A DNA stretch of 61,574 nucleotides, taken from the NCBI GenBank assembly GCA_012513065.1, contig JAAZCX010000021.1, positions 1 to 61,574 of the forward strand, given 5' to 3'. This stretch comes from Clostridiaceae bacterium (GTDB lineage: Bacteria > Bacillota > Clostridia > TANB77 > CAG-508). Below the pieces are notes generated by a model. That model saw nothing but the letters and a program-made list of their open reading frames with translations, ran no database searches and had not been told where the DNA came from. Positions within the stretch are counted from its first letter, which is position 1. Each line of letters begins with the position of its first letter. Shown one piece after another: positions 59,814 through 61,555 of this stretch. The position numbers and the translations under genes were made by a program.

Positions 59814-59842
59814 TTGACAAAAATACAAATTACAATTAAAAT
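59814..59842 (+). promoter_or_regulatory. SigA promoter of the pilin-like gene
   Basis: TTGACA-N17-TAAAAT, then AAAGGAGG RBS. Confidence 0.75.
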
Positions 59843-59868
59843 AAAATTACAATACAAAGGAGGAAATT

Positions 59869-60699
59869 ATGAAAAATAATAAAGGTATAACACTAATTGC
59901 TCTTGTAATAACTATTATAATATTAATAATACTAGCTGGAGTAAGTATTAATTTAATAATAAATAATGATGGAATTATAGGAAAAGCAGAACAAGCAAAA
60001 GTAGAGACAGAAAAGCAAACAGCAACAGAAAAGATGAATTTAAAAATAACAAATATACAAATAGAAGCATATACTAAAACACAAGAATTACCAAATTTAC
60101 AAAAGTTAGCAGATAATTTATGTGAAGATAATGAAATACAATATGTAACACTTGCAAGTAATAAAGTGGCAAGTTTAGAAAAAATAACAGTAGGAGAAGC
60201 AGAATCAATCTTTACAAAAATGAAAGATTATCCATATGAATTTGAAATAAATAGTTCATTACAACTAGCATCAGTAGATGGAGTACAAGTAGCACAAACA
60301 GAAGAAAATCAACAAATTGGAGATTTACAAAAACAAATTGATGAAATGAAAACTCAGATAAGTACATTACAAACAGAAGTAAATAATCAAAAAGATATTA
60401 TTAAAGTATATGCTGCAAACAATACTACAAAATTTGATGATATAGAATTAGATGCAGGACATTATATTTGTATAATATATTCACAAACATTGGATAGTGT
60501 ATATGTTAAACCAGCAGTATATATGATATCTATAGGGGAAAATTCAGTTCAATATAGAGCAGATTGCCAACAAATTGTAGCTGGAGATAGACAATATACA
60601 ATTAATGTAACACCAATGTCTGCAAGTAATAAAAAAGGAAAAGTGTCAATTACAATGGCTTTAAATTGGTATTATTGTGAAATGATAAAAATAAAATAA
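59869..60699 (+). CDS. Type IV pilin-like protein (expressed copy)
   Basis: MKNNKG|ITLIALVITIIILIILAGVSI; coiled-coil linker; unique C-terminal domain. Confidence 0.82.
   Translation: MKNNKGITLIALVITIIILIILAGVSINLIINNDGIIGKAEQAKVETEKQTATEKMNLKITNIQIEAYTKTQELPNLQKLADNLCEDNEIQYVTLASNKVASLEKITVGEAESIFTKMKDYPYEFEINSSLQLASVDGVQVAQTEENQQIGDLQKQIDEMKTQISTLQTEVNNQKDIIKVYAANNTTKFDDIELDAGHYICIIYSQTLDSVYVKPAVYMISIGENSVQYRADCQQIVAGDRQYTINVTPMSASNKKGKVSITMALNWYYCEMIKIK
59873..60294 (+). repeat. 422-bp direct repeat, copy 1 (pilin constant region)
   Basis: Matches 60693-61114 at an offset of 820; six substitutions counted by eye. Confidence 0.92.
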
Positions 60700-61114
60700 T
60701 AAAGGTATAACACTAATTGCTCTTGTAATAACTATTATAATATTAATAATACTAGCAGGAGTAAGTATTAATTTAATAATAAATAATGATGAAATTATAG
60801 GAAAAGCAGAACAAGCAAAAGTAGAGACAGAAAAGCAAACAGCAACAGAAAAGATGAATTTGAAAATAACAAATATACAAATGGAAGCATATACTAAAAC
60901 ACAAGAATTACCAAATTTACAAAAGTTAGCAGATAATTTATGTGAAGATAATGAAATACAATATGTAACACTTGCAAGTAATAAAGTAGCAAGTTTAGAA
61001 AAAATAACAGTAGGAGAAGCAGAATCAATCTTTACAAAAATGAAAGATTATCCATATGAATTTGAAATAAATAGTTCATTACAACTAGCATCAATAGATG
61101 GAGTACAAGTAGCA
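60693..61114 (+). repeat. 422-bp direct repeat, copy 2
   Basis: See copy 1. Begins right after where the ATG and RBS would be. Confidence 0.92.
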
Positions 61115-61555
61115 AATGATACAGTTACAGTAGACAAAGAACAATGGGAAGGATTTTTAAATAAAGTAACAACACTTCAAAAGAAACCAGTATTATTGAA
61201 AAGAGATATGAATTTTACTGCAGATTTTATTTCAGCTAGTACATGGACAACAATAGAAGAAGTATCTTTAGCAGGACACGGAAGTGGAATTGCAAGTGTT
61301 TCATATACTGCAACAAATCCAGAAACTGCGTGCTCAATATTAGATATTGATGGATATAGTGTTAATACAAATAACTCAAATGAAAAATTTTTAGGATCAG
61401 ATGGAATTAAATAAACAACCAATAAAACATGGAGAAGAGCAGCATTTTCTATAAGTATTCCATATGATAAAAATACAAAAATTAGATTAAGAGCTTATTC
61501 TGATGCAGCTATGAAAATTGATTATGCATATTCAATAACATTATTTGAAAATTAA
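60695..61555 (+). pseudogene. Start-less second pilin-like cassette with a different C-terminal domain and an internal stop
   Basis: Frame opens after TAA 60692 with NNKGITLIALV... (no ATG or RBS). In-frame TAA at 61412, then 46 more codons (TTNKTWRRAAF...TLFEN*) to 61555. Confidence 0.8.

Follow-up and report, generated by a model that had tools for sequence, protein, structure and literature searches.

A tandem pair of modular pilin-like genes in a Clostridiaceae genome, probably a working gene and a dead second copy that recombine through a module-sized repeat

The window analysed here is a whole contig of 61,574 nucleotides (JAAZCX010000021.1, contig C42) from a Clostridiaceae bacterium (assembly GCA_012513065.1), whose 1.27-Mb genome is in 77 contigs, has 26% G+C and is 93% complete. 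The right end of the window contains two adjacent pilin-like reading frames, of which the first (gene 1) is intact and the second (copy 2) has no start. Gene 1 (59869–60699, + strand) is an open reading frame (ORF) beginning with ATG at 59869 and encodes a modular pilin-like protein of 276 amino acid residues. A ribosome-binding site (RBS), AAAGGAGG, could be read from the sequence at 59856–59863 (+), 5 nt ahead of the ATG. A consensus scan detected a sigma-70-type promoter-like site, TTGACA-17-TAAAAT, at 59814–59842 (+), which was the sole 11/12 match in the region, is also present in contig L097 from another sample and is presumably the promoter of gene 1. The protein consists, in this order, of a leader (MKNNKG), a hydrophobic helix, a pilin-like module, a linker helix and a beta-sandwich, and identical or near-identical versions of it are found in five further assemblies.

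As modelled with AlphaFold2, gene 1 continues beyond the pilin-like module with a disordered linker of low confidence (residues 138–150), a coiled-coil helix (149–173) and a beta-sandwich (177–275), which make up C-terminal module 1 (60295–60696, +). The module 1 protein has a full-length homologue, P0003, with 46% identity across 100% of the query, and no second counterpart of module 1 was found elsewhere in the genome. In the coiled-coil linker (60339–60362), six clustered single-nucleotide polymorphisms (SNPs) turn QKQIDEMKTQISTLQ into QKQMNELKTQINTLQ. The latter variant is carried by the contigs L099 and L100 and by the sequencing runs X10, X13 and X17, while X14 has the first four SNPs only. 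The cluster has the appearance of a short tract of conversion, or else of a patch of the expressed gene that is diversifying.

An ungapped comparison at a constant offset of 820 showed that 416 of 422 bases (98.6%) are shared by 59873–60294 (+; repeat copy 1, from codon 2 to ...LASVDGVQVA) and 60693–61114 (+; repeat copy 2, the same pilin-like module minus the ATG). Both repeats are in direct orientation and the repeating unit is 820 bp. There are six mismatches, at 59937, 59972, 60042, 60063, 60168 and 60274, three of which are synonymous. Identity begins at base +5 of gene 1 and collapses directly past ...DGVQVA (60294/61114), and the C-terminal parts that follow are unrelated (BLASTP E=17). 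A first-pass annotation of this DNA, made from the sequence alone, had described the repeat pair and its abrupt divergence, a first copy with promoter, RBS and ATG, and a start-less second copy that overlaps the stop of gene 1 and has an internal TAA at 61412. The sequence agrees with it on every one of these elements.

The stop codon of gene 1 (60697–60699) falls inside the second repeat and is repeat sequence in another frame. In the frame of copy 2, a TAA at 60692–60694 (+) stands immediately ahead of the first repeated codon, and there is neither an RBS nor a start. The earliest ATG, GTG or TTG is at 60854, downstream of the signal and the helix. The reading frame of copy 2 (60695–61555, +) has 286 codons and a natural stop (61553–61555), with one interruption. 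Copy 2 is probably co-transcribed with gene 1, because a terminator is absent between the two, and as its sequence stands it is not translatable as a secreted protein.

The interruption is a TAA at 61412–61414 (+), which removes the final 46 residues, the last third, of C-terminal module 2 (61115–61552, +). Module 2 gave 18 phmmer matches among 1.84 billion representatives (best E=8.5e-13), in which residues 22–144 of the query were aligned with the C-termini of the matched proteins, and a word-based homologue search returned nothing but module 2 itself. The homologues have the same pilin-plus-module architecture, end in ...YDENT.I.F...Y.YSILLIPD, and align across the site of the TAA as far as their own C-termini. 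Conserved among them are the motifs SLAG.G.GKAIISYS, YDENT.I.F and Y.YSILLIPD, the last two of which lie past the TAA of the window. Since homologues align through it and the 46 codons after it are open as far as the shared terminator (chance 0.008 at the local base composition), the TAA reads as a true nonsense mutation in a conserved domain. This TAA and the missing start are identical in all eight of the assemblies compared (8/8), single-copy ones included, and no variant was reported at either lesion in any of 20 runs. In the AlphaFold2 model of copy 2, module 2 is unfolded (predicted local distance difference test, pLDDT, <50), because the alignment contained no module 2 homologues. The alternative offered by the first-pass annotation, a recent duplication now decaying, fits copy 2 well.

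The order with two copies was found in six assembled contigs, namely the window and L021, L097, L098, L099 and L100 from other samples. L097 and L099 reach from the methyltransferase gene on the left of the locus through to the peptidase gene on its right. Single Logan contigs also cross every junction, from the upstream flank into the repeat and module 1 in X20, from module 1 into the second repeat in X17, X13 and X18, and from the second repeat into module 2 in X19. The window itself stops just after copy 2 because of the terminator hairpin of the locus, which lies just beyond the contig end and whose A-run starts at 61568–61574 (+). Past this end, L022 and L097 run on with AAAAAAAAGTGAAGAATTTGTTCTTCACTTTTTTT and then a U32 peptidase gene, the same gene that opens contig C68 of this genome, ~92 nt beyond the window end. 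A scan of Joint Genome Institute (JGI) metagenome contigs gave no conspecific contigs (best match 72% identical), and the locus was not found in any RNA run.

The leader and helix of gene 1, MKNNKG followed by ITLIALVITIIILIILAGVSI, are a short basic leader ending in Gly and then ~20 hydrophobic residues, which resembles a class III signal. The AlphaFold2 model of gene 1, from an alignment of 80 sequences, had a mean pLDDT of 77 and ~90 over residues 10–130. The modelled carrier module has helices at residues 5–31, 36–71 and 77–86 and four strands within 90–136 (pLDDT ~90). On this model of residues 1–136, the 422-bp repeat is predicted to be one complete carrier module, and the point of divergence a domain boundary. 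The N_methyl family PF07963 scored 17.9 bits for gene 1 and 13.9 bits for copy 2, below the gathering cut-off of 21.2, and a family profile searched against PDB sequences matched only the alpha1-N of geopilin, MshA and PilA (E 7e-4 to 0.3). The mature +5 residue is Ala in gene 1, not Glu. Among the 79 relatives with a K/R-G leader (of the best 120), this residue is A in 39, S in 35, V in 3, T in 2 and E in none. Foldseek found no PDB match to gene 1 at E<=0.001, the top one being T4 gp9 at E=0.02, so the module is consistent with a pilin fold, in which a long alpha1 packs on an antiparallel beta-sheet, but the fold is not demonstrated. The genome encodes a prepilin peptidase (Peptidase_A24, C71:19134–19472, 69 bits) and PilB/PilT-type ATPases (T2SSE, C59:19657–21654, 340 and 146 bits).

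A search of 5.8 billion proteins returned ~7000 relatives of the constant part, whose Pfam cover is the weak N_methyl match only. Up to ~60 family matches occur per genome in the same genus (in a 1.5-Mb genome). The module of the relatives ends in ...EFEINSSLQLASIDG[VI].[VI]A (...LQLASIDG[VI].[VI]A) and is followed by total divergence at the same boundary, and the C-terminal modules of some of them are Collar (PF07484), F5/8C (PF00754) or LamG domains. In the same search, constant parts more than 73% identical to that of gene 1 were found in two proteins anywhere, the module 1 form and the module 2 form. Paralogues elsewhere are at most 74% identical in the repeat, while the copies at the locus are 98.6–100% identical. 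The related records, among them Clostridium sp. CAG:245 and CAG:452, are of uncultured Clostridia from the guts of a wide range of animals; the CAG-245 genus belongs to the TANB77 lineage, and a TANB77-like placement is probable for the genome of the window too. By their sequences these proteins form a very large, uncharacterised group of modular surface proteins like type IV pilins, in which a conserved carrier bears a hypervariable C-terminal module predicted to bind. Incorporation into a pilin filament and binding are predicted for the family by analogy.

Tandem arrangements were also seen in relatives. L026, from mouse gut, has an intact tandem pair. Both genes begin with an ATG of their own, 412 nt of spacer separates them, and their modules share 82% identity. 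To judge from these sequences, a layout with two starts and a spacer is likely the ancestral arrangement. Tandem short pilin genes spaced at ~430–550 nt, with 5′ parts 80–94% identical, were observed in L029–L044, L051, L064 and L065, and homogenised tandem N-terminal coding segments seem to be a general trait of these lineages. Two further family members of the present genome are damaged. One, at C25:2100–3800 (+), is leaderless and start-less, its constant module being reduced to the second half (from ...LPNLQELADEF). It has stops ahead and then an open C-terminal domain of 391 codons, in a genome of 26% G+C, and would be a pseudogene of very recent origin or else a stored module. In the other, at C58:34900–38500 (−), the helix codons come directly after a 2.2-kb element with a tyrosine recombinase and a split IS91-like transposase. 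The frame of this gene is broken by a TAA and by a +1 shift, the latter located exactly at GGA CGG T GGA and followed by a Gly-rich domain (GGGGYYGG...).

The state of the locus in natural populations was read from k=31 contigs and contig depths, not from reads. The depths came from 20 runs of bioreactor, farm, manure, sludge and wastewater studies, with ratios computed for 16 of them. In most runs the depths of flank, repeat, module 1 and module 2 were ~1:2:1:1, with the repeat at about twice the flank depth in the Logan contigs, as in X1 (262:429:273:250) and X8 (46.6:93.6:52.5:48.7). Module 1 was present in 20 of 20 runs and, apart from X15, stood at 0.6–1.5x the flanks, the extremes being low-depth runs.

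The first-pass annotation had predicted that recombination between the repeats would delete 820 bp and place the second C-terminal domain on the expressed gene. Such a form was assembled in L022 (2.2x) and L096 (3.4x), both from the same study series. Their order is methyltransferase, promoter, ATG, pilin module, module 2 with its TAA, terminator and U32 peptidase. The two contigs differ in their flanks. At sites 1–5 the repeat of L096 has the haplotype of window copy 1, and at site 6 that of copy 2, as a single crossover would yield. The predicted form also shows as a depth deficit in the wastewater run X15, where five flanking contigs were at 78–88x, module 2 at 97x, the repeat at 111x and module 1 at 43x. 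Every flanking SNP in X15 was at full depth, which indicates one strain background across 3 kb, and the simplest reading is that about half of this population is without the 820-bp unit. A deficit of module 1 was also seen in X19, a low-depth run. X8, which is fully two-copy, carries most of the flanking SNP alleles of X15. The two runs share alleles across 59218–59412 and differ at 59785, 59810 and 59854. Since the flanking alleles of X15 thus mostly co-occur with a two-copy locus, deletion is favoured, not proven, over an old insertion polymorphism. Reported joints that skip 940, 383 or 1195 bases, with sides of ~21 nt, were discarded as unrelated contigs sharing short words.

Recombination between the repeats, as the first-pass annotation had supposed, is also suggested by their SNPs, which appear to be exchanged between the copies. 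Each of the five internal repeat SNPs has two alleles, and these are combined in many ways among populations. In several runs a single repeat haplotype was present at ~2.0x the flank depth, so that both copies are identical there, and the identity of this haplotype varies by run. The four-gamete test fails among the assemblies. These homogenised, run-specific haplotypes and the four-gamete failure together suggest that gene conversion probably takes place between the repeats. The support was taken only from runs with a repeat:flank ratio of ~2.0 (X8, X5, X3 and X14). The conversion signal is confined to the constant part, and site 6, 20 nt from the boundary, is always linked to its own module.

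Dedicated machinery for such exchange was not found. There are no inverted repeats at the locus, and no G-quadruplex (G4) motif (G3+N1-7 x4) on either strand of 59000–61574. Tyrosine-recombinase matches in the genome are limited to C58, C72 and a remnant in the window (3723–3935, +), a fragment covering Phage_integrase positions 98–170 with an internal TAA, 56 kb from the locus; none is near the pilin pair. A reverse transcriptase (RVT_1) match is absent from the genome, and no further cassettes were found, there being one silent copy and, among 5.8 billion proteins, two modules on this constant part. A diversity-generating retroelement was rejected, the genome being without reverse transcriptase and the mismatch base being A four times in copy 2 and twice in copy 1. 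A shufflon or invertase was rejected, since the repeats are direct and no recombinase is nearby. Homopolymer phase variation at the start showed no indel across 20 runs, and quadruplet decoding of CGG at the locus was discarded because neither copy contains an in-frame CGG.

On balance we consider it probable, well short of certain, that the locus holds two tandem paralogues that recombine, the second of them dead, and that repeat instability and gene decay operate here, within a family that shuffles rapidly, and no dedicated switch exists. Gene 1 would be the working gene and copy 2 a relic whose RBS and ATG disappeared where it joins gene 1. The junction at +5 may have originated by deletion of a spacer or by one-sided homologous insertion. 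General homologous recombination would act on the module-sized 422-bp repeats because they are long, near-identical and direct. Gene conversion would keep the repeats alike and reshuffle their SNPs, and unequal crossing-over would alter the number of 820-bp units, loss being shown and gain suggested. Loss of a unit would join the promoter, start and pilin module to the truncated module 2 and so delete the working tip domain.

Several observations weigh against this explanation. Repeats could look homogenised through bubble popping in Logan or SPAdes contigs, the SPAdes contigs disagree over the repeat SNPs, and runs with a repeat:flank ratio of ~1.6 fit unconverted copies. Copy 2 is free of decay beyond its two lesions, and must therefore have been silenced recently or be kept for some reason. 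The frequency of the deletion rests on depth ratios, because a homologous deletion leaves no diagnostic junction in k=31 contigs, and L022 and L096, at ~2–3x coverage, could alone be loop-skipping artefacts. In X3, X9 and X7, as compared over 60244–60722, module 1 is at 1.4–1.5x both flanks, an unexplained excess that could come from a sub-population in which the 820-bp unit is doubled or from another genome sharing module 1. The direction of the event is also unproven, as the single-copy form could result from deletion of the unit or be ancestral, with a later insertion.

The proposal of the first-pass annotation that the adhesin domain is switched stood in part. The deletion allele exists, but a functional switch does not follow from it, module 2 being truncated by a nonsense codon and the event being irreversible. 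In its full form this proposal holds that recombination is selected, with copy 2 as a start-less stored cassette and the pilin repeat as the handle, so that the C-terminal module on display changes and phase or antigenic variation results, for example escape from phages or grazers that recognise module 1. It can draw on a deletion form that is real, makes up ~50% of one natural population on a uniform background and was assembled twice. The repeat is also held at 98.6–100% where paralogues elsewhere do not exceed 74%, copy 2 retains a long open frame, and other start-less or leader-damaged members with long open C-terminal parts exist at C25 and C58. However, a fixed nonsense codon truncates module 2 within a conserved domain, and the event is one-way since module 1 is destroyed. 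There is a single cassette and only two modules were ever found on the constant part, most populations lack a module 1 deficit, and dedicated machinery was not found. We therefore consider a selected switch of this kind, and a programmed one, unlikely.

A broader notion is that the pilin-module sequence serves throughout the family as a maintained recombination handle and that start-less or truncated copies, such as that in C25, are a reservoir of tip modules. We hold this to be rather unlikely. If it were true, exchange at the ...LASIDGVxVA boundary would re-equip pili, the present locus would be a module swap with a recently damaged cassette, and the deletion allele would be a real and selectable phase variant.

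The single-copy form, with its TAA already present, could instead be ancestral, the 820-bp unit having arrived later, by insertion, from a paralogue or another strain through one-sided homologous recombination. A working tip would then have replaced a dead one, and X15, L022 and L096 would represent the old allele still segregating. The flanks of the locus bear on this. The left flank is a conserved YrrM/TrmR-like O-methyltransferase gene of 196 amino acid residues (59198–59788, +; Pfam PF01596, E=9e-30), present in one copy in each of 31 of the 31 genus genomes searched. In many Firmicutes, a YrrM-like methyltransferase and a U32 peptidase are paired in an operon. Within the genus, the gap that separates the two genes varies from 75 nt to >5 kb (window 59585–59870; intervals L101–L120). 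It is 75 nt in two species, 0.7–0.9 kb without long ORFs in six and >5 kb in four, holds a protein of 530–590 residues in three, and contains other pilin-family genes in G008 and G018. Because its length and content vary so widely, the gap is, on these sequences, an insertion hotspot in the genus, which keeps insertion into a dead gene alive as a scenario. Next to the gap, L022 differs from the window at 59617–59726, the 3′ end of the methyltransferase gene, by 17 substitutions in 110 nt beside identical sequence. This tract looks like a short recombination import ending just ahead of the promoter of the pilin locus.

Insertion would also agree with a promoter and terminator that bracket the whole locus, the 820-bp unit bringing neither, with a gene 1 stop that is provided by copy 2 sequence, and with a TAA common to the single-copy and two-copy forms. 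Direct repeats nevertheless undergo deletion far more often than precise insertion, the two-copy X8 shares most of the flanking haplotype of the half-deleted X15, and the genome has no donor of module 1 elsewhere. Taken together, these points make the ancestral single-copy form quite unlikely.

Expression of copy 2 was also considered, either as a fusion through a +1 ribosomal shift (AAA TAA to AAT) or as a leaderless product of 186 amino acid residues from the ATG at 60854. The frame is indeed +1 relative to gene 1, an A-rich slippery run at the end of gene 1 abuts the repeat, and the GGA CGG T GGA of C58 suggests that the organism tolerates +1 events at CGG. However, neither the junction nor the frame of either copy has a CGG, a fusion would be a secreted protein with another hydrophobic pilin helix in its interior, module 2 would be cut short by the nonsense codon in any case, and the ATG at 60854 has neither an RBS nor a signal. 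Such expression is highly improbable. That a repeat was collapsed or expanded in assembly and the two copies are artificial, which the first-pass annotation had named as a danger and which the contig end 20 nt past copy 2 and the inconsistent repeat SNPs among SPAdes contigs might suggest, is effectively refuted by the six agreeing contigs, two of them spanning the whole locus, by the k=31 contigs across every junction and by depths of 1:2:1:1 in many runs, the contig end being accounted for by the terminator hairpin.

A recombining pair with a dead second copy, as we favour it, has some wider meaning. The hosts are uncultured Clostridia with small genomes, from anaerobic digesters, manure, wastewater and animal guts, in which up to a few per cent of the genes may encode pilin-anchored proteins with interchangeable tips, and the shared carrier module is described in no database. 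The locus and its population data show how tips may be gained or lost, so that the evolution of surface specificity becomes measurable in a lineage that cannot be cultivated. Its main value lies in this measurable case of tip-module turnover in a large undescribed family. It is also a caution that an expressed gene next to a start-less copy need not mean a Neisseria-like switch.

The closest protein comparison is with modular type IV pilins, of which >1,200 proteins in 264 architectures have been described (Raynaud et al., PMC8179133), among them the Streptococcus sanguinis pilins PilB, with a vWA module, and PilC, with a lectin module (PMC8179133). The present family is like them in its class-III-like leader and hydrophobic helix, its small pilin module, and the short linker to a grafted C-terminal module. 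The genome likewise has a prepilin peptidase and PilB/PilT-type ATPases, and some relatives have lectin- or fibre-like modules. In contrast to modular pilins, the +5 residue is mostly Ala or Ser and never Glu, N_methyl stays below threshold, Foldseek gave no significant pilin match, and the family has undergone a huge expansion, to as many as ~60 matches in a single genome of 1.5 Mb. By analogy, the family is predicted to work like modular pilins, although it fails two formal tests of a pilin, Glu5 and the Pfam threshold.

The locus resembles Neisseria pilE/pilS in that an expressed gene stands beside a promoter-less, start-less sharer and that recombination alters the expressed product. Silent copies in Neisseria are many, lack the constant N-terminal part and donate by non-reciprocal gene conversion triggered by a G4 and a small RNA. 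Here, in contrast, there is a single silent copy, the entire constant part is kept, a nonsense codon interrupts the variable part and no G4 motif occurs. Donor-retaining transfer of variable sequence was not seen in the populations, the sole variant being the loss of module 1. The comparison with pilE/pilS drawn in the first-pass annotation, which had itself pointed out that the silent neighbour is kept with its constant part, is right on that point, but the defining features of pilE/pilS fail here and only an analogy is left.

The R64 shufflon (PilV, Rci) and Moraxella Piv use inverted repeats and a dedicated site-specific recombinase and are reversible. The present locus shares with them a constant pilin N-terminal part with alternative C-terminal segments downstream, but it has direct repeats without a recombinase close by, and what occurs there is deletion. 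The homogenisation of SNPs, a deletion allele free of a novel junction and a possible allele with an extra unit are instead features of RecA-dependent concerted evolution and unequal crossing-over. Nothing essential differs from ordinary tandem paralogues, except that here the repeat coincides exactly with a protein module, and for this reason a crossover swaps the C-terminal module on the expressed gene. The locus is thus most aptly seen as a tandem pair under concerted evolution and unequal crossing-over, unusual in that a protein module is exchanged by the crossover.

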